This document shows positions 1 through 11,698 of a stretch of DNA of 64,000 nucleotides, piece after piece. The translations under genes were made by a program, and so were the position numbers. Numbering within the stretch: position 1 is the stretch's first letter; each line of letters starts with the position of its first letter. Below the pieces are notes generated by a model. It did no database searches. It had not been told where the DNA came from and saw nothing but the letters and a program-made list of their open reading frames with translations. Source of the stretch: Somniosus microcephalus. Lineage: Eukaryota. Location: assembly GCA_052327205.1 (NCBI GenBank), contig CM126205.1:184264001-184328000 (forward strand), in the 5' to 3' direction.

Positions 1-1
1 T

Positions 2-2008
2 GGACAACCAGTCCGATTGGAACGGCCTCCCTGCCCATCACAAAGGGAAAGATCAGGGTACCCAGGCGGTTGGTCATATGAACTTGAGGTCCATCCCGGC
101 ACCACGCAAGTAGACTCCCTCAACTCGGTCTGGATCCCTGTTGTCAGACCCAGAAGTGACAATTATACACAACTACAAACTAGCGTGGATACTGATGGAC
201 ATATAACGGTCACTGGCATATATGATGATGCTGGACTGGGACGTTAGTCATATTCCTCCTGCTCACCGCACAAGGGGCAGCATGAAAAAATGATGGGTGT
301 GGTCATCAGTACCATCAACATTATAGCAGGGTGGACTAAATTACACCCATTCATTTGGGAACCAGGACTTGAGGGACAATATTGCCAAGAATTGTGTAGC
401 GATGTTCTTAAGTGGTTGGGACGTACTGATATAAGATGCTTTGATTTAACAACATGTGGATATCAAAAGCCGTTGCGATGTCCCACCACGGTGCCACCTC
501 CAATGGATGGCATGATTAGGGTCGGGGGCCTGAAGGCATTGTTACATGATGTAACTATAGTCACTTTAGAAGTAATCTATAACCTGAGCAGTATAGTGCT
601 GGTGTTGGAGGGCAATTGTGGTGATCACCCAGCATCAATTACTTGGGTGGAGCATAAATTGCAGTGATTACTTAGTGATTATAAGGACCGCATAGCCCCC
701 GAAGTAGGGGCCCCCAAGGGGCGGCGGAGACGGAGTATATTAGGGGAAGTGGGGGGCTTGTTTGGACGTGCCAACTCGGTCCTAAATTCATGGCAAATCA
801 CGGGCCTGGATAGCTATGCCTCCTGGGTGGTGCAGGAAAGCGCCAAGGGCCTGCGGTTCACAGCTCAGGGATTAGAGTATGCACTTACGGCAGTAGAGGT
901 GCTTGGAACCGGGTTACAGAGAGGTATAGAGGTCCTAGGGAAAGCCGTAATAAAGGCGACTGATTTACAGTCCAAGGGGTGAGCATGTGACATGCTGGCT
1001 CGGGACTTGATTGACAGCGTTGAATCAGACATTGAAGACATCAGGTTTGGGACGGTGCCCCATCATGCGCAGAAGTCAGCGGTCTTAATCTGATTAACTG
1101 GGAGGAAGATAGACAGGAGCTCTTGGTAACCCGACCAGCAGGCTGGGGGGCCTGCGGATGCATTTAGATTTCTAATGATGGTGCCACAGGGGCACAAGAA
1201 TGGGACATGTCGGGGGGGGATGTAAAGTAGAGTCTCTGGGAGTGGTCAGAGGCGAATCGGCATACCGGGTGGGTATCCACAGATACGTAGCACCTGGCAA
1301 GAATGGCACCCTGCTTATGACCACGGATGAGTGCTGTACTGAGTCACAGCACTACATAGTGTGTACCTGTAACACCCTGAAACCAATAGATGAGGGCTCA
1401 GCAGTGGTGGTGATGGCAGAGCCTCTGGAAGGTGCCTTTAGGGCAATTCAGGCATCTCCAATTCAGTGGTGTTTTCTGACCGACGAGAATAACTACCTCT
1501 ACGGAGGATTGGTATGTGCAAGTAATCATATATTTCGCCTTCAAGTTTCAGACTCTCATCTTGGGAGATTTCCATCGACCAGGCAGAACCCTCGCCGGCC
1601 TGGTCTTCAGCTCATGGTGGGATGACGAGTTGAGTGTGGATGATACACCAGGGAGGGCCGCTAGGGTGGCAGTGGAACAGGCCTTGAATGCCACAATGGA
1701 ATACATTGCACGGAGTAAACAAGCTCTCACGGGGACGAGTGGAGGTGGACTTGACCAAAAGAACGGCGAGAAGGCTGGCTGCTAAAAGGCAGGGAGCTTC
1801 AGCCATAGGCCCAGTAGGAGAGGGCCAAAGACAGCCTAACTGGTGGGACATAGGTAGAATGGCAACTGCCATCGCCACCACGCTCATCCTTATCGTCAGT
1901 AGATGCATCTGTTGCTATCTTAAACGGATGATATCCCAAGCAGTGCAAATAGTGGTGATGTCAAATAGGGGATACGCCCCGGTGTCAGTAGCCAAGGTGC
2001 CACTCTGA
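2..2008 (+). pseudogene. env: Decayed retroviral-like envelope (class I fusion glycoprotein) gene, 5' end outside window
   Basis: ORFs 17-247, 290-667 and 749-982 share one frame broken by in-frame stops. Furin site CGG CGG AGA CGG (RRRR, 722-733) is followed by fusion-peptide-like SILGEVGGLFGRANSVLNSWQI and a helical segment. Cys-rich ECCTESQHYIVCTC follows in 1200-1625, then WW plus hydrophobic anchor WWDIGRMATAIATTLILIVSRCICCYLKR in 1688-2008; frameshifts between these parts. Confidence 0.8.
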
Positions 2009-2233
2009 GACTGGGGAAAAGTGGGATGCGTATGCAATATAAATCTGGCCGACTGGGTCCCAAGCACAGCCAAAGTCACTAGGACATCGGTGAGGCTGTA
2101 AGAGGACCATGTAATTTATGGATTTGACACTTGCGGGAGTTCAGTTGGATCCCTGGACAATCCAGCAGGTAGAGAATTCGGGGATTTAGTTATGTCCTAC
2201 CTGGATCAGACGAGGTCTGACCAGGGGCCAACA
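1915..2233 (+). repeat. env 3' end / 3' untranslated segment, copy 1 of a ~320-bp direct repeat
   Basis: Near-identical to 4290-4611 (ATCCCAAGC.GTGCAAAT.GTGGTGATGTCAAATAGGG ... CTGGATCAGACGAGGTCTGAC.AGGGGCCAACA). Confidence 0.9.
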
Positions 2234-2486
2234 GATGAAGTGGGGTGAGTACGTTAATTTATACCACCCAGTAGTTAGGTCTGTGGGCACGGCGCAGTCC
2301 CTCGGACTATCGGGGATCTCGAACAATACAGAGTCAGAATGGCTGTCATGTAAGCGAGAGAGAGGGCAACATTGCAAAGTGGTTGTGGTCGCCGACGGCC
2401 AAGAGAGGGCCGGGGTAGAGAGCTTAACGGGTGTCTCACTGGGGGTAGAAGACCCCCGCGATTTCTAAAGTGTTAAGTTTTGCAAG

Positions 2487-3117
2487 ATGGCCGAGGGAAA
2501 GCCGGGTTCTCAGGGATCCATAATGGAGTATTTGTTAAATAAACATGACCAGGTAATAAAAAGAATGGGCAAGGAAGGCTCGGATCCTGAATGGGTTCCC
2601 AACCGACAGAAAGAATGGTGGAATAAGGAGGAGAAAACTGTAGTGGTTCTTTGTCAGGTCCACCTGAAAAATGTGTAAGATTGGAGCCACGCAGGAGAAG
2701 GAAAAAAGGGAATTAGTGGAACAGTTAATAAAGGTAGGCGCCAAGTGTGCCACTGTAATGAAGGCAAGGTCAATGCAAAGTGGAAGGAATGATAGTGAGG
2801 AGGTTGATTGGGATGATTTTGAAAGAGAGGCAGCAGAATGGGAGTGAGATGATGATATCCTCACGCAGGATGATAAGATGTTAGAACAACAAAATCAGAT
2901 TGAGCTTCTGCAGCGTCAAGTTGCCTCATCTGCTGCGATCATGCAGCAGCAGAGTGTAAACGTGGTTCAGGCAGGCTCCACACTGCAGAATCTTGAGGAA
3001 GCCAGGTGTCAGATAGCCACCCTAACAAAAAATCTAATTTGCAGGCTAACCAATCTGAAAACTCAGCAAAGGAAGGGGAAAAAAACAGGGATTTGGAAAG
3101 CCAGGGAAAGCTGCTGA
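2487..3117 (+). pseudogene. gag-like N-terminal ORF (coiled-coil), left copy, frameshifted with a stop
   Basis: MAEGKPGSQGSIMEYLLNKHD...EVDWDDFEREAAEW...LEQQNQIELLQRQVASS. Inverted copy at 8252-8861 sits about 300 bp downstream of LTR+PBS, the gag position. Confidence 0.6.
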
Positions 3118-3616
3118 GATGCCAATTTAAAGAAAAAAGGAAAAAAAGAGAAATCTAAAGTTTTACCGACATGGAAGTTATTAACGTCTGTGCTGAGACA
3201 AATAAAACACCAGATTGCTGAGTGAAAGGAACCTTAAAAAATGCTGGAATTTTAGTTTGTGTGAAAGTGTGTGTTAAAGTGTGAAAGTTTTCCTGACTAT
3301 GAATGTTTAAGAAGTTACAGTATTCCTTTTGTCTGAAAGTCAAAAAAAGAAAAATGTCTGTTGTGTGTTTTAGCTCCACCCACTTTGTTTTAAAAATAAC
3401 CTTTAACCCTTTTGTCTCGTCGTGGATTTTGAAAGTTTTAAGAATGTGCGAATAAGATTGTGCACCCAGAATTGAAACAAAACTTCAAACTACAATTTGG
3501 TGTGGAAAAACTGAGGAAAAACAACGTTTGTTTAACAAAAGATTAAGTTTCAGTCTAAGATTTAACCTTGGAGTCGTGGTTGCTATGGTGAAATCTTCCA
3601 AAGCATTTTTAATGTG

Positions 3617-3665
3617 GAAGCAAGTCATCCTCGGTTCCGAGGGACTGCCTAAGAGAAGAAGAGAG
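3617..3665 (+). mobile_element. Short RTE-like LINE 3' end with long (~70 bp) target-site duplication
   Basis: CAAGTCATCCTCGGTTCCGAGGGACTGCCTAAGAGAAGAAGAG flanked by direct repeats 3545-~3616 and 3666-~3741. The inverted sister arm (about 7715-7790) has one copy and no insert. Confidence 0.6.
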
Positions 3666-4289
3666 AAGTTTCAGTCTAAGATTTAACCTTGGAGTCGTGG
3701 TTGCTATGGTGAAATCTCCCAAAGCAATTTGTTTAAATGTGAAAAACTGCTTGTTCTCCAGTTGTATTCAATGTTTTCAGTCATTTGGAAAGGCATCTGA
3801 AGAAAGGACAATAAGAACTATGACGTAATGTACTGTTTTCTGCAAGCATGTGCTATTTTGTTTTGTTTTATCTGTTCTGTTCATGTTTAGTTGAAGTGTG
3901 AAAGTCTTTCTCGTTCGGGATTTTTTTAAATACATTTACGTGCAGTAACATAATTGCGTGCACCTGACAATGTTCGCTCCGCCTTCTTAAAAAACCTACA
4001 AAGGAGTTAACCTTTTCCACTGACAGCTGTTTAAGTTCACCAAGCAACAACTTCAGTATTGCTGAATGAAATTTAAAGATATTGGACATTATTAAATTTA
4101 AGTTTCTTAATTTTAAGTTAATATTTCCCTACAGTGACAGAAGGAAAATTATGATTTGATAAATTAACTCCTTGGGCTCTTAAACAGAGCCACAATGGAT
4201 TCTCTGCTTTTTTTTGTTATATGAAAGTTACCGTGTAAACTAATTGTAGCACTTATGTCTCTAATGATAAAACACCGTATAAACCCCAT

Positions 4290-4611
4290 CTATCAAAAAC
4301 AGATGACATCCCAAGCGGTGCAAATGGTGGTGATGTCAAATAGGGTATACGCCCACGGTGTCAGTAGCCAAGGTGCCACTCTCAGCGACTGGGGAAAAGT
4401 GGGACGCGTATGCTATATAAATCTGGCCGACTGGGTCCCAAGCACAGCCAATGCCACTAGGACATCGGTGAGGCTGTAAGAGGACCATGTAATTTATGGA
4501 TTTGACACTTGCAGGAGTGCAGTTGGATCCCTGGACAATCCAACAGGTAGAGAATTCGGGGATTTAGTTATGTCCTACCTGGATCAGACGAGGTCTGACT
4601 AGGGGCCAACA
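4290..4611 (+). repeat. env 3' end / 3' untranslated segment, copy 2
   Basis: Direct repeat of 1915-2233. Confidence 0.9.
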
Positions 4612-4624
4612 TGAGTAAGTGCTG

Positions 4625-5503
4625 CAGTTACACAGACATCCCCCCACTGACCAAGCACAGCTACACACACAGTCCCACTGACCCAGCACAGCCCCACTGA
4701 TCCAGCACAGACACACACAGCCCCACTGACTCAGCACAGTAACAGACATCCCCACTGACCCAGCAGTTACACACAGCCCCACTGACCCAGCAGACACACA
4801 CACAGACCCACTGACCCAGCACAGTTACGCAGACATCCTCACTGAGCAAGCTCAGCCACACACAATCAGTCTGACTGATCCAGCATAGACACACTAACCC
4901 AGAACAGACACACACAAAGCTCCACAGACCCAGCAGTTTTACACACACAGCCCCACTGACCCAGCACAGACCTACACAGCCCCACTGACCCAGCACACAC
5001 AGAGCCCCACTGACCCAGCAGAGACACAGCACCACTGACGCAGCAGTTACGGACAGCCCCACTGACCCAGCACAGTTACACAGACATCCCCACTGACCCA
5101 GCACAGTTACACAGGCATCCCCACTGACTCAGCAGTTACACAGGCATCCCCACTGACCCAGCACAGAGACACAGCCCTCCCCACTGACCCAGCACAGACA
5201 GACAGCCCCACTGACCCAGCACAGACGCACAGCCCCACTGACCCAGCACAGTTACACACACAGCCCCACTGACCCAGCACAGAAACACACAGCCCCACTG
5301 ACCCAGCACAGTTACACACAACGCCACGGACACAGCACAGTTACACAGACATCCCCACGGACACAGCACAGTTACACAGACATCCCCACTGACCCAGCAC
5401 AGTTACACAGATATCCCCACTGACCCAACACAGACACACAGCCCCACTGACCCAGCACAGACACACACAGCCCCACTGACCCAGCACAGTTATACACACA
5501 GCC
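4625..5503 (+). repeat. Minisatellite, ~30-40-bp unit CAGCCCCACTGACCCAGCACAG(TTACACA)
   Basis: Visible tandem array; reverse complement of the array at 9652-10443. Confidence 0.9.
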
Positions 5504-5980
5504 TGATAGGGTAACCTGTAGGTTTGGATAACTTTTACATGTATATTATGGTTGCGTTAGAAGCCATGCTATTAAAATGTTACTGTAACTGCAAGGCATG
5601 ATGGGAAGTTTGACCAAAACCAGACCAAAGCGTAGTGTCAGCATTTAACAGTAGCAGTAGTTGTAATAAAGTTTCTTCACGAAACCTTGAATCAGGAACA
5701 ATGAACAAAGATAATGGCAACTGGAGGCCGGATAAGATAAACAAAACTGCAGAAAGGCAGAAGTAAGGACCTTGGGTCCAGGACAGTTGAGATAGCGGGA
5801 AACATCTGCCAAAGCCTACGTAACCGGTAATTAACAGTTGATTATGTATAAATAAACTGTCTTGACCATTGTAAATTTGAGAGACTTCGGTACGCTGAAG
5901 GCTCTCCCCTGCATGCTTGTAATAAAGTTTCTCTCATATCACAGCCTACCCTTGACTCCAAGTGGTTTCTTTCCACAACA
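5504..5980 (+). mobile_element. LTR (duplicated copy of the 5' LTR)
   Basis: TG...CA termini (TGATAGGG...TTCCACAACA), TATA-like TATAAATAAA at 5847-5856, AATAAA at 5921-5926. Inverted near-identical copy at 9179-9651 is followed by a PBS. Confidence 0.85.
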
Positions 5981-6034
5981 ACTATCTAATTAGTGAAACA
6001 ATCAGAATAGAGTTAAACACATTGGTACCTGTGC

Positions 6035-6290
6035 TCGCAATCGCTTTTCAGGGTTCTATTCATACACTCCACCATTCTGGAACTCTGAGGGTGGTAAGGT
6101 ATGTAGAACCTCTGCTTTACCCCCAATAACTGACATGCCCTCTTCATGACCCTACCCGTAAAGTGGGTCCCCTGGTCTGAATTAATTTATAGGGGGACCC
6201 CCCCACTGGGGTATCACCTCCTCTGCCAAGATTCTTGTGGCCATATTGGCGGTGCAATTTCGTGTTGGGAAGGCCTCTACCCAGTTCACA
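6035..6290 (-). pseudogene. pol: Retroviral integrase core fragment
   Basis: Manual minus-strand translation gives WVEAFPTRNCTANMATRILAEEVIPQWGVPL*INSDQGTHFTGRVMKRACQLLG / KQRFYIPYHPQSSRMVE, a typical rve DDE core. Confidence 0.85.
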
Positions 6291-6435
6291 CTGATGTTCT
6301 TCTCCTTCCGTTAATATGCCACCTGCAGGGTTTAATCCACCATTTTTAACAATCTTTACGGACTATAAGTACCGCTTCTCTTCCCACGCTGCTCTTCAGC
6401 TATCTGATACTGCACTTAACCTTCCAGTATTAAGT

Positions 6436-6585
6436 AGGATATTGTTTATGTAGTTTGTGGGTTTCCCCCTTGATCATGACGGGTGTCATATCGACCCTCC
6501 CGCAATCCTGTTTGTGTCTAGCCCATACCTCTGGAAATTGTGAACACAAGCCCAAAGACACCCTCAGCTGTCCAATCCATATTCC
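6436..6585 (-). pseudogene. pol: Retroviral reverse-transcriptase N-terminal fragment
   Basis: Minus-strand translation LCSQFPEVWARHKQDCGRVDMTPVMIKGETHKLHKQYP, the VW...G...QYP start of RT; most of pol is deleted between this and the integrase piece. Confidence 0.7.
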
Positions 6586-8251
6586 ATGTAACTCTCCACT
6601 TAAACTTCAATTTCAATTCCTCTAACAGGTACCAGTGTGTTTAACTCTATTCTGATTGTTTCATTAATTAGATAGTTTCTCGTTGGAGTAAGTGTCAATG
6701 CAGGGACACAAAAATGTCTCCAAGAGAAAGCTATCAATTTACTATTTGTAACTACACTTTTCTGACTTTCACTAGAAAGCTAGGAAAATTGTCATTTGGT
6801 AGTGTAATTTTCCTGTTTCTATCTTATACCCTCAATCACATCCTCTCTCCATTTTACACATCCCATTAATTACCATTCATATCTCATTCATGAGCCCTGG
6901 AGGAACTTTACTGTCCAGTACAATATTTAAGATAGAAAACATAGCTCAGATGTTCTCACTTGGTCCAAGTTATTAACACTTTTTATTTATCATTATTTTA
7001 GAGGATCTTTTATTTACCCAAAAGTAACCCAATATATCGTGCCTGAGTCCATTTTGTCATTTCAAAATTATCCCAAAATCCAAACAGCAGTATTGTTGAA
7101 CTGACAGGTTTTGTCAATGTTCAATTTCATTCTTATCAATTTATCTTATCAATTCCGATTTCAGAAACAAGTGATTCCCATGCTGGGTGGTATACACAGT
7201 GTTTTATCATTAGCGACATAAGTGTTACAATTAGTTTACAAGGTAACTTTCATATAACAAAAGAAAGCAGAGAATCCATTGTGGCTCTGTCCAAGAGCCC
7301 AAGGAGTTAATTTATCAAATTATAATTTTCACTGTGGGGAAATATTAACTTAAAATTAAGAAACTTAAATGTAATAATGTCCAATATCTTTAAATTTCAT
7401 TCAGCAATACTAAAGTTGCTTGATGAACTTAAACAGCTGTCAGTGGAAAGGGTTAATTCCTTTGTAGGTTTTTTAAGGCGGCGGAGCGAAACATTGTCAG
7501 GCACATGCAATTACGTTCACATAAATTTATTAAACTTTCCCGATCGAAAAAGACAGTTGTTTTTTCACACTTCAACTAAACACGAACAGAACAGATAAAA
7601 CAAAACAAAATAGCACATGCTTGCAGAAAACAGTACATTACATCATATTTCTTATTGTCCTTCCAAATGACTGTAAAAGCATTGAATACAACTGGAGAAC
7701 AAGTAGTTTTTCACATTTAAACAAATTGCTTTGGAACATTTCACCATAGCAACCATGACTCCACGGTTAAATCTTAGACTGAAACTTAACCTTTTGTTAA
7801 ACAAACTTTTTGTTTTTCTCAGTTTTTCCACACAGCTTAACTTAAATTGTAGTTTGAAGTTTTGTTTCAATTCTGGGTGCACAATCTTATTCGCACATTC
7901 TTAAAACTTCCAAAATCCAAGTCAAAAGGGTTAAATGCTTTTTTTAAACAGAGAAGTGGGTGGAGCTAAAACACACAACAGACATTTTTCTTTTTTTTAA
8001 AGACAGACTTTCAGACAAAAGGAATATTGTAACTTCTTAAACATTCATAGTCAGGAAAACTTTCACACTTTCACACAAACTAAAATTCCAGCATTTTTTA
8101 AGGTTCCTTTCACTCAGCAATCTGGTGTTTTATTTGTCTCAGCACAGACGTTAATAACTTCCATGTCGGTAAAACTTTAGGTTTCTCTTTTTTTCCTTTT
8201 TTCTTTAAATTGGCATCTCCGCAGCTTTCCCTGGCTTTCCAAATCCCTGTT

Positions 8252-8861
8252 TTATCCCCCCTTCCTTTGCTGAGTTTTCAGATTGGTTAGCCTGCAAATT
8301 AGATCTTTTGTTAGGGTGGCTATCTGACACCTGGCTTCCTCAAGATTCTGCAGTGCGGAGCCTGCCTGAACCACGTTTACACTCTGCTGCTGCATGATTG
8401 CAGCAGATGAGGCAACTTGACACTGCAGAAGCTCAATCTGATTTTGTTGTTCTAACATCTTATCATCCTGCATGAGGATATCATCATCTCGCTCCCATTC
8501 TGCTGCCTCTCTTTCAAAATCATCCCAATCAACCTCCTCACTATCATTCCTTCCACTTTGCATTGACCTTGCCTTCATTACAGTGGCACACTTGGCGCCT
8601 ACCTTTTTTAACTGTTCCACTAACTCTTTTTCCTTCTCCCGTGTGGCTCCAATCTTACACATTTTTCAGGTGGACCTGACAAAGATCCACTACAGTTTTC
8701 TCCTCCTTATTCTTGCTCTCCTTACTCCACCATTCTTTCTGTCGGTCGGGAACCCATTCAGGATCCGAGCCTTCCTTGCCCATTCTTTTTATTACCTTGT
8801 CATGTTTATTTAACAAATACTCCATTATGGATCCCTGAGAACCCGGCTTTCCCTCGGCCAT
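8252..8861 (-). pseudogene. gag-like N-terminal ORF (coiled-coil), right copy
   Basis: ORFs 8655-8861 and 8252-8662 overlap at one frameshift (CACCTGAAAAATGTG); downstream of LTR, PBS and a leader with a GG|GTGAGT donor. Confidence 0.65.
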
Positions 8862-9157
8862 CTTGCGAAACTTAACACTTTAGAAATCGCGGGGGTCTTC
8901 TACCCCCAGAGAGACACCCGTTAAGTTCTCTCCCCCGGCCCTCTCCTGGCCGTCGGCGACCACAACCACTTTGCAACGTTGTCCTCTCTCTCGCTTACAT
9001 GACAGCCATTCTGACTCTGTATTGTTCGAGATCCCCGATAGTCCGAGGGACTGTTCCGTGCCCACAGACCTAATTACTGGGTGGTATAAATTAACGTACT
9101 CACCCCACTTCATCTGTTGGTCCCGGAACAGTGTCCTTGTTTCGGAACTAGCAGCGG

Positions 9158-9175
9158 ATTCTACCGACTACGCCA
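9158..9175 (-). promoter_or_regulatory. Primer binding site, tRNA-Ser
   Basis: Minus strand TGGCGTAGTCGGTAGAAT, 3 nt after the LTR CA; 16/18 match to the complement of the vertebrate tRNA-Ser 3' end ATCCTGCCGACTACGCCA. Confidence 0.9.
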
Positions 9176-9178
9176 AGT

Positions 9179-9651
9179 TGTTGTGGAAGAAACCACTCGG
9201 AGTCCATGGGTAGGCTGTGATATGAGAGAAACTTTATTACAAGCATGCAGGGGAGAGCCTTCAGCGTACTGAAGTGTCTCAAATTTACAATGGTCGTAGT
9301 AGTTTATTTATACATAATCAACTGTTAATTACCGGTTACATAGGCTTTGGCAGATGCTTCCTGCTATCTCAACTGTCCCGGACCCAAGGTCCTTACTTCT
9401 GCCTTTCTGCAGTTTTGTTTATCTTATCCGGCCTCCAGTTACCATTATCTTTGTTCATTGTGCCTAATTCAAGGTTTCGTGAAGAAACTTTATTAAACTA
9501 CTACTGTTAAATGCTGACACTACTCTTTGGTCTGGTTTTGGTCAAGCTTCCCATCATGCCTTGCAGTTACAGTAACATTTTAATAGCATAGCTTCTAACA
9601 CAATTATAATATACATGTAAAAGTTATCCAAACCTACAGGTTACCCTATCA
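9179..9651 (-). mobile_element. 5' LTR of endogenous retrovirus-like element
   Basis: TG...CA termini, TATA and AATAAA, directly followed by PBS and gag-like ORF on the minus strand. Confidence 0.88.
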
Positions 9652-10443
9652 GGCTGTGTGTATAACTGTGCTGGGTCAGTGGGGCTGTGTGTCTGTGCTG
9701 GGTCAGTGGGGATATCTGTGTAACTGTGCTGGGTCAGTGGGGATGTCTGTGTAACTGTGCTGTGTCAGTGGGGTTGTGTGTAACTGTGCTGGGTCAGTGG
9801 GGCTGTGTGTTTCTGTGCTGGGTCAGTGGGGCTGTGTGTCTGTGCTGGGTCAGTGGGGCTGTGTGTGTAACTGTGCTGGGTCAGTGGGGCAGTGTGTCTG
9901 TGCTGGGTCAGTGAGGCTGTGTGTCTGTGCTGGGTCAGTGGGGATGTCTGTGTAACTGTGCTGGGTCAGTGGGGCTGTCCGTAACTGCTGCGTCAGTGGT
10001 GCTGTGTGTCTGCTGGGTCAGTAGGGCTCTGTGTGTGTGTGTGCTGGGTCAGTGGGGCTGTGTAGATCTGTGCCGGGTCAGTGGGTCTGTGTGTGTAAAA
10101 CTGCTGGGTCTGTGGAGCTTTGTGTGTGTCTGTTCTGGGTCAGTGTGTTTATGCTGGATCAGTCAGACTGATTGTGTGTGGCTGAGCTGGGTCAGTGGGG
10201 ATGTCTGTGTAACTGTGCTGGGTCAGTGGGTCTGTGTGTAACTGCTGGGTCAGTGGGGATGTCTGTTACTGTGCTGGGTCAGTGGGGATGTCTGTTACTG
10301 TGCTGGGTCAGTGGGGATGTCTGTTACTGTGCTGAGTCAGTGGGGCTGTGTGTGTCTGTGCTAGATCAGTGGGGCTGTGCTGGGTCAGTGGGACTGTGTG
10401 TGTAGCTGTGCTGGGTCAGTGGGGGGATGTCTGTGTAACTGCA
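9652..10443 (-). repeat. Minisatellite (CTGTGCTGGGTCAGTGGGG unit), inverted partner of 4625-5503
   Basis: Visible tandem array. Confidence 0.9.
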
Positions 10444-11698
10444 GCACTTACTCACCAATAACTTGCTCACTGATGCCCAGTTTGGGTTCTGCCAGGACCA
10501 CTCAGCTCCAGACCTCATTACAGCCTTGGTCCAAACATGGACAAAAGAGCTGAATTCCAGAGGTGAGGTGAGAGTGACTATCCTTGACATCAAGGCAGCA
10601 TTTGAGTGTGGCATCAAGGAGCCGGAGTAAAACTGAATCGGGGGGAAACTCTCCACTGGCTGGAAGATGGTTGTGGTGTTTGGAGGTCAATCATCACAGC
10701 CCCAGGACATTGCTGCAGGAGTTCCTTGGGGCAGTGTCTTAGGTCCAACCATCTTCAGCTGCTTCATCAATGACCTTTCCTCCATCACAAGGTCAGAAGT
10801 GGGGATGTCCACTGATGACTGCAGTGTTCAGTGCCATTCGCAACTCCTCAGATAATGAAGCAGTCCATGCCCGCGTGCAGCAAGACATGGATGACATTCA
10901 GGCTTGGGCTGATAAGTGGCAGGTAACTTTCGCGCCACACAAGTGCCAGGCAATGACTATCTCCAACAATCGAGCGTCTAACCACTGCCCCTTGATCTTC
11001 AATGGCATTACCATCGCCGAATCCCCCACCATCAACATCCTGGGAGTCACCATTGACCAGAAACATAACTGGACCAGCCACATAAATACTGTGGCAACAA
11101 GAGAAGGTCAGAGGCTGGGTAGGCTGGGTGTCTCTCCTTCTGACTCCCCAAAGCCTTTCCACCATCTACAAGGCACAAGTCAGGAGTGTGATGGAATACT
11201 CTCCACTTGCCTGGATGAGTGTAGCTCCAACAACACTCGACACCATCCAGGACAAAGCAGCCCGCTTGATTGGCATCCCATCCACCACCTTAAACATTCA
11301 GTCCCTCCACCATCGGCGTACCGTGGCTACAGTGTGTACCATCTACAAGATGCACTGCAACAACTCACCAAGGCTTCTTCAGCAGCACCTCCCAAACCCG
11401 CGACCTCTTCCACCTAGAGGGACAAGGGCAGCAGGCGCATGGGAACACCACCACCTCCAAGTTCCCCTCCAAATCACACACCATCCTGACTTGGAAGTAT
11501 TTTGCCAGACCTTCATCATCGCTGGGTCAAAATCCTGGAACTCCCTCCCTAACGGCACTGGGGGAGTACCTTCACCACACGGACTGCAGCGGTTCAAGAA
11601 GGCAGCTCACCACCACCTTCTCAAGGGCAACTAGGGATGGGCAATAAATGCTGGCCTTGCCAGCGACGCCCACATACCATGAATGAATATTTAAAAAA
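10444..11698 (+). mobile_element. 5'-truncated LINE family B (CR1/L2-group non-LTR retrotransposon), decayed RT and 3' end
   Basis: GVPWGSVLGPTIFSCFINDL, WADKWQVTFAPHKCQ, VRSVMEYSPLAWMS; 3' end GGCAATAAATGCTGGCCTTGCCAGCGACGCCCACA...ATGAATGAAT; same family as 50141-51858. Confidence 0.9.

Follow-up and report, generated by a model that had tools for sequence, protein, structure and literature searches.

We analyzed a window of 64,000 nt of Somniosus microcephalus DNA (GCA_052327205.1, contig CM126205.1, positions 184,264,001–184,328,000; window coordinates are used throughout) that contains the remains of an endogenous retrovirus (ERV). The window carries a broken, rearranged and dead copy of a multi-copy ERV family, and nothing intact is encoded by this copy. 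As the best overall explanation, we consider it probable that these are dead pieces of a shark ERV family with a Pol between snakehead retrovirus (SnRV) and class I, an env likely of class Ib and not gamma-type, and a history of repeated env swaps.

The long terminal repeat (LTR), the tRNA-Ser primer-binding site (PBS), gag, pol and env belong to one element family. Searching the genome DNA with the window env gave 42 matches from the 40 candidates that were scored out of 156. A polypurine tract (PPT) and the same LTR lie downstream of env in 16 of the 19 other env loci fetched, and in six of the 19 both LTRs enclose gag and env within 9.9 kb. LTR/gag and env therefore belong together, as the preliminary description of this DNA had assumed, and do not come from unrelated elements. 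The order across copies is LTR-PBS(Ser)-gag-pro-RT-tether-RNase H-IN-env-PPT-LTR, the fuller copies adding a CCHC knuckle, protease, reverse transcriptase (RT), tether, RNase H and integrase (IN). Pfam domains found in pol are RVP, RVT_1, tether and RNase_H, rve and MLVIN_C. The window PBS matches the 3′ end of a tRNA-Ser(AGA) gene of the same genome in 16 of 18 bases, and that of copies L018, L027, L058 and L064 in all 18. Between paired LTRs, the Kimura two-parameter (K2P) divergence is 0.034–0.069 in four copies, and target duplications of 4 bp (L030, L059) or 5 bp (L027) are visible.

Several further observations concern the copies themselves. Shared 5′ flanks among L022, L058 and L064, and among L060 and L061, indicate that some copies multiplied by segmental duplication, not by new insertion. 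A 39-bp unit of pol coding sequence is expanded to ~34–130 copies between RNase H and integrase in L020, L021, L024, L026, L033 and L046 (six of six checked); this array is a minisatellite that arose inside an ERV gene. Many dispersed loci (L055–L057) contain only a short env piece (query residues 66–185, ~81–82% identical), probably a separate non-autonomous repeat.

When a copy of env is translated in a single frame with X for each stop, the product is ~775 residues long and has a hydrophobic N-terminus, a furin site at residues 343–346, a transmembrane (TM) segment at 735–753 and 27 cysteines. Its layout consists of a signal peptide, the furin site, 425 post-cleavage codons and one TM segment. 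The window holds the 3′ 87% of the gene on the plus strand (1..2008), with the start ~300 nt upstream of the window. This part is broken: it contains in-frame stops and changes frame three times (near 1200, 1440–1570 and 1730), and most of its pieces are 77–82% identical in amino acids to other copies. An RRRR furin-type cleavage site (722..733) is followed by a Gly-rich putative fusion peptide; R-x-K/R-R is also found in the homologues P0070 and L091. From the cleavage site to the stop (2006–2008) we counted 1275 nt or 425 codons, close to the ~420 estimated before. The TM segment (1859..1918), at the hydropathy peak of P0001 residues 735–753, is followed by a short tail.

This env is not of the gamma type. 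The immunosuppressive domain (ISD) motif was absent from all 20 env copies, in line with the preliminary description, and the same pattern did find the gamma control. TLV_coat matched none of the 20 env alignment members versus seven of seven sister-family controls. The CX6CC pattern was absent in P0001, P0070 and P0084, a weak test, as this pattern failed to detect the gamma control as well. Among 1.84 billion proteins, a profile search identified 36 env homologues (E ≤ 0.001). The ten looked up by name came from sharks (Scyliorhinus, Carcharodon), the loggerhead turtle (Caretta) and teleosts, or were unnamed records. A second search yielded 89 proteins, mostly teleost and many of full length. 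A word-seeded search with one env open reading frame (ORF), restricted to longer proteins, found none among 7,469 candidates.

We regard env as likely, though not proven, to encode a class Ib (paramyxovirus-F/foamy-type) fusion protein. Likeness to a paramyxo- or pneumovirus F protein had been proposed from the sequence before, and for an env of non-gamma type whose post-cleavage subunit is long, it remains the best reading, held with that same confidence. A furin site, a fusion peptide, two heptad-repeat regions (HR1 and HR2) and a single C-terminal TM segment are all present, the helices being taken from low-confidence models in which the post-cleavage helix extends over 75–90 residues. The Foldseek comparison suggested in the preliminary description was made with two separate env models against 350,542 PDB chains and put F and foamy proteins on top, none of them significant. 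For model 1, ranks 1–4 were F proteins of respiratory syncytial virus (RSV), human metapneumovirus and measles virus; for model 2, six of the seven top rows were foamy Env or henipavirus, measles or RSV F. The F alignments span 317–480 columns, beyond the helices alone. By Atlas feature score, the near-full-length homologue P0034 reached 0.93 for Gypsy env, Baculo_F and Fusion_gly, with all ten of its best family-bearing matches belonging to a single family or clan; a score of 0.9 is attained by 4–10 of 100 shuffled proteins.

Several results weigh against this assignment. Both env models are poor (pLDDT 38.3 and 37.5), and no PDB match in Foldseek reached E ≤ 0.001 (best 0.33 and 0.12; TM-scores <0.3). 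As for the DI–DIII core that class Ib fusogens form from both subunits, VIA-align gave nothing beyond generic helical hairpins (~100–116 residues, best Z 9.3), alongside the non-significant top rows of Foldseek. Pfam searches with the window ORFs, env pieces and both non-gamma env families (the second is introduced below) gave no meaningful match, and PDB sequence searches with profiles of both env families were empty or noise. There is no hydropathy peak >1.5 at the fusion peptide, which is thus weakly hydrophobic. In Atlas, the closest shark homologue, P0035, scored 0.95 for Monjiviricetes_fusion and 0.92 for rhabdovirus G; P0035 is a fragment without the cleavage site and most of HR1. A single BFVD row with an E-value of 9e-4 had a TM-score of 0.07 and was not used as evidence.

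The generic hairpins would also fit a separate kind of class I fusogen, or one distantly related to the uncharacterized Env of walleye dermal sarcoma virus (WDSV) or SnRV, either of which would resemble F in having two long helices only; epsilonretrovirus Env, too, is described as non-gamma (PMC9967133). We consider this unlikely, as the F alignments in Foldseek are not limited to helices and no WDSV or SnRV Env occurred among the named env homologues, with 26 of the 36 from the first search not looked up by name. Less likely still is that a retrovirus captured a class III fusogen related to chuvirus or rhabdovirus glycoproteins. Such a capture would agree with the Atlas result for the fragment P0035, in which 18 of 30 matches were to the top family, Monjiviricetes_fusion, and chuvirus-like env is known in BEL/Pao elements (10.1101/2023.10.26.564294). 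The longer homologue P0034, however, gives F families, and neither rhabdovirus G nor gB was among the Foldseek PDB rows listed. Moreover, the furin site lies in mid-chain, with a Gly-rich peptide and a helix of that length behind it, as in class I proteins; the fusion loops of class III proteins are internal.

The Pol that accompanies this likely class Ib env was assessed by motifs, domain matches and phylogeny. The family RT and RNase H contain LPQGFHNSP and TDSRYAFG, and W.LTIDY and D.SNGFWS are common to the family and SnRV. The class I motifs YR.VQDLR and DL..AFF and the loki motif CPFGY are absent from the family RT; in the supplement of PMC7947760, the loki rows read CPFGY.NSP in RT and TDSNYARL in RNase H. 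Compared with PDB, the RT-RNase H of a sister family (L035) scored 344 bits over 585 residues with xenotropic murine leukemia virus-related virus (XMRV), 172 with foamy virus and 114 with Ty3; SnRV was not among the PDB matches. RNase H of this sister family matches chains of murine leukemia virus (MLV)/XMRV, and foamy chains align over RT only. The MLVIN_C match of the integrase (E 4.5e-4) lies below the cutoff, and the tether plus RNase H of the family pol is common to all retroviruses. A "class I" label based on PDB scores was withdrawn after P0020 was recognized as SnRV Pol by its match to the SnRV RT row in the same supplement.

For the phylogenetic analysis, 37 chosen Pol rows were analyzed by quick search without bootstrap and rooted on two gypsy-like Pols, with no loki, foamy or WDSV rows; P0031 and loci of <250 residues had been left out of an earlier row set. 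The shark clade obtained an SH-aLRT support of 99, its grouping with Pimephales 94, and the sister relationship to the class I-like rows 93. SnRV, on a long branch, and one teleost Pol fell outside the shark plus class I group (SH-aLRT 93–95 in these quick trees). The tree places this Pol as sister to, not inside, the class I-like (gamma/epsilon) rows, and domains, PDB scores and the tree speak against Ty3/Gypsy (Metaviridae, with a single RNase H). Judged from its sequence, Pol is of the orthoretrovirus type, in the SnRV-to-class-I grade, and not loki. Among named records, the closest env and Pol relatives come from Scyliorhinus, Carcharodon and Heterodontus. Of the earlier proposal of a loki-like or otherwise deep-branching lineage, a position of Pol outside the canonical gamma/epsilon and Gypsy groups is supported, and the loki-like part is not, given LPQGFHNSP, TDSRYAFG and the Pol placement. 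That the element is a cartilaginous-fish lokiretrovirus is very improbable and already largely refuted: loki Env is F-like (PMC7947760) and the loki motifs W.LTIDY and D.[AS]NGFW are present in the family RT, but SnRV has both too, the family has LPQGF and TDSRY against CPFGY and TDSNY in loki, the sister-family bit scores and the MLVIN_C match speak against it, and the loki study included sharks in its screen without marking them positive in the available part of that source.

Most sister Pol families of this genome, several of which share the PBS, carry a gamma-type env; seven of seven ORFs tested match TLV_coat. A second non-gamma env group lies next to related Pols in L043, L044, L089 and relatives, L043 being assigned by motifs and alignment A5. 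This second env is homologous to the window env (hhalign 97.5%, E 8e-12, over 360 columns). It is also far more abundant in the genome, with at least 150 scored matches from 18,747 first-look candidates (L043, L044, L089–L108). Gamma-type and non-gamma env are interspersed on the Pol tree; four changes are needed on a 24-row tree, a count that is silent on gain versus loss. In approximately unbiased (AU) tests on these 24 chosen rows, monophyly was rejected both for the gamma carriers (p 0.010) and for the shark F-like carriers (p 0.020). These tests are weakened by groups named after a tree was seen and by quick-search trees without bootstrap, and L036 and L037 were labeled gamma from motifs read by eye. 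F-like and gamma-type env were likely exchanged several times by recombination within this Pol clade, in a direction that the data leave undecided. A clade of the shark family with the Pols of the teleost elements P0009, P0122 and P0128 was likewise rejected (AU test, p 0.0002). Those teleost elements have the same env and apparently a different Pol (integrase 72% to P0009, ≤49% to others). The gamma-env relatives L083, L085 and L086 adjoin C2H2 zinc-finger gene arrays.

In an active ancestor, env would have been translated from spliced RNA, and furin would have cut Env to free an N-terminal fusion peptide. The long HR1 and a membrane-proximal HR2, with a Cys-rich beta region between them, may then have refolded into a six-helix bundle, driving membrane fusion. 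The ~250-residue N-terminal extension probably served in receptor binding; the F scaffold is described as tolerating N-terminal binding modules (PMC11468914). Many copies are a deletion derivative, devoid of the stretch from capsid to RNase H but with env retained, which would have spread in trans. Between lineages, env could have been exchanged by recombination.

On a wider scale, we suggest tentatively, as possible rather than probable, that F-like class Ib env is not limited to foamy and loki viruses but common among retroviruses of fish, sharks and turtles that have an orthoretrovirus-type Pol, is maybe ancestral, and was repeatedly replaced by gamma-type env. If so, the shark clade keeps this swap in both states within one genome. 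The loki paper leaves four scenarios for the origin of retroviral Env (PMC7947760). Orthoretrovirus Env has been placed in class Ia and foamy Env in class Ib (PMC11468914); a class Ib env on a Pol adjoining class I ERVs, alternating with gamma-type env in close relatives, would break this split and open the order of env gain and loss to phylogenetic tests. The env family also includes many unannotated vertebrate database proteins without a Pfam name.

The window locus is not one single provirus. The LTR, tRNA-Ser PBS, leader donor motif, gag-like ORF, RT start, integrase core and RRRR-containing env of the preliminary description were all recovered, but on two strands: env lies on the plus strand, and LTR, PBS, leader, gag start, RT start and integrase core on the minus strand (9651 down to 6043). 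Inverted duplication connects 2224–4285 with 7189–9124 and 4612–6032 with 6625–10454, and between the plus-strand env piece and the minus-strand part, LTR, leader and gag are present as an inverted duplicate.

On the minus strand, the 5′ LTR (9179..9651; 473 bp, TG...CA) is followed after 3 nt by the PBS (9158..9175) and, in the leader, by the splice-donor-like motif GTGAGT (9098..9103; duplicate at 2245–2250 on the plus strand), a putative donor recognized as a sequence motif only. The broken 5′ part of gag (8252..8861, start at 8861) extends in the fuller copy L023 to the CCHC knuckle and protease. In the window, an AT-rich segment (7189..8200), common to many deletion-type copies, stands in place of the capsid, nucleocapsid and protease of fuller copies. 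Then follow the RT start only (6358..6549; VWARHKQDCG at 6499–6528, QYP at 6436–6444), the end of the RT tether domain (6288..6437) and an integrase core fragment (6043..6283; WVEAFP, SDQGTHF, PYHPQSS). The RT start jumps to the tether end and then to the integrase core, joined by deletions, so that pol is largely lost; gag, protease, RT and RNase H are for the most part deleted from the locus.

On the plus strand, the env-bearing piece continues into a 3′ untranslated region (UTR; 2009..2232) that ends just before its own PPT, where a short sequence common to both joins it to the leader copy. We rejected 2027–2232 as a second LTR type; it is the 3′ UTR preceding the PPT. Next come the inverted duplicate of the leader, gag 5′ part and AT-rich segment (2224..4285; K2P 0.034 to the minus arm over the gag part) and a second copy of the env tail and 3′ UTR (4290..4621; 93% to 1915–2242). 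A host satellite with a unit of ~29–31 bp (4687..5503, mirrored at 9652–10424) flanks the inverted duplicate of the LTR (5504..5976, plus strand), so that this LTR has the same flank as the minus-strand copy. The AT-rich segment (3143–4285 and 7189–8200) is also found directly after integrase in other ERV families (L035:6828–7033, L038:6577–6939). Elsewhere in the window, we found a LINE reverse-transcriptase remnant (10441–11650, with further copies) and, from ~19600 on, large arrays of tandem repeats with a period of 12 bp.

Among known systems, lokiretroviruses share the LTR-gag-pol-env order, tether plus RNase H, and an F-like Env with signal peptide, basic cleavage site, fusion peptide, coiled coil and TM segment (PMC7947760). 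Their RT branches as sister to the remaining retroviruses, their RNase H is allied with that of foamy viruses, their integrase is akin to CGIN1 and their Env resembles PF00523. They differ in RT/RNase H motifs and Pol placement, have ~120 residues before the cleavage site in Loki-Str Env versus ~345 in the window env family, and are not reported from cartilaginous fish in the available part of that source. Errantiviruses of the Ty3/gypsy group likewise carry an F-type env in an LTR element, which is the top Atlas cluster for P0034 (10.1101/2023.10.26.564294), whereas the Pol of the shark family is retroviral and not gypsy; the preprint defers vertebrate analysis to a later report. In literature titles and abstract openings, subscription papers and repeat libraries aside, we found no description of an F-like env on such a Pol. 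The epsilonretroviruses WDSV and walleye epidermal hyperplasia virus are fish retroviruses thought to have swapped a gamma-type Env for another (PMC9967133). The premise of the preliminary description about gamma/epsilon TM subunits was thus too broad, as exogenous epsilonretroviruses also are without gamma-type Env. WDSV differs from the shark family in its RT motifs YRMIHDLR and DLSNAFF, no env homology was seen, and no accessory genes were seen in the shark family. The SnRV clade and SnRV-related ERVs with gamma-type Env share W.LTIDY and D.SNGFWS in RT, fish hosts and Pol/Env incongruence (10.1101/2021.11.23.469661), but SnRV fell outside the shark clade and was not joined with it in our quick trees. 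Because that study, as far as its available text goes, screened only gamma- and beta-type Env, the window env type lay outside its net. Foamy viruses differ from the shark family in that no sequence match was found and that the fuller shark copies combine a CCHC knuckle in Gag with a normal signal peptide. Nevertheless, foamy Env and paramyxo/pneumovirus F, both of class Ib (PMC11468914), resemble the shark env in that the long post-cleavage subunit has a Cys-rich beta region between two helical regions, and they provided its best, non-significant Foldseek rows.

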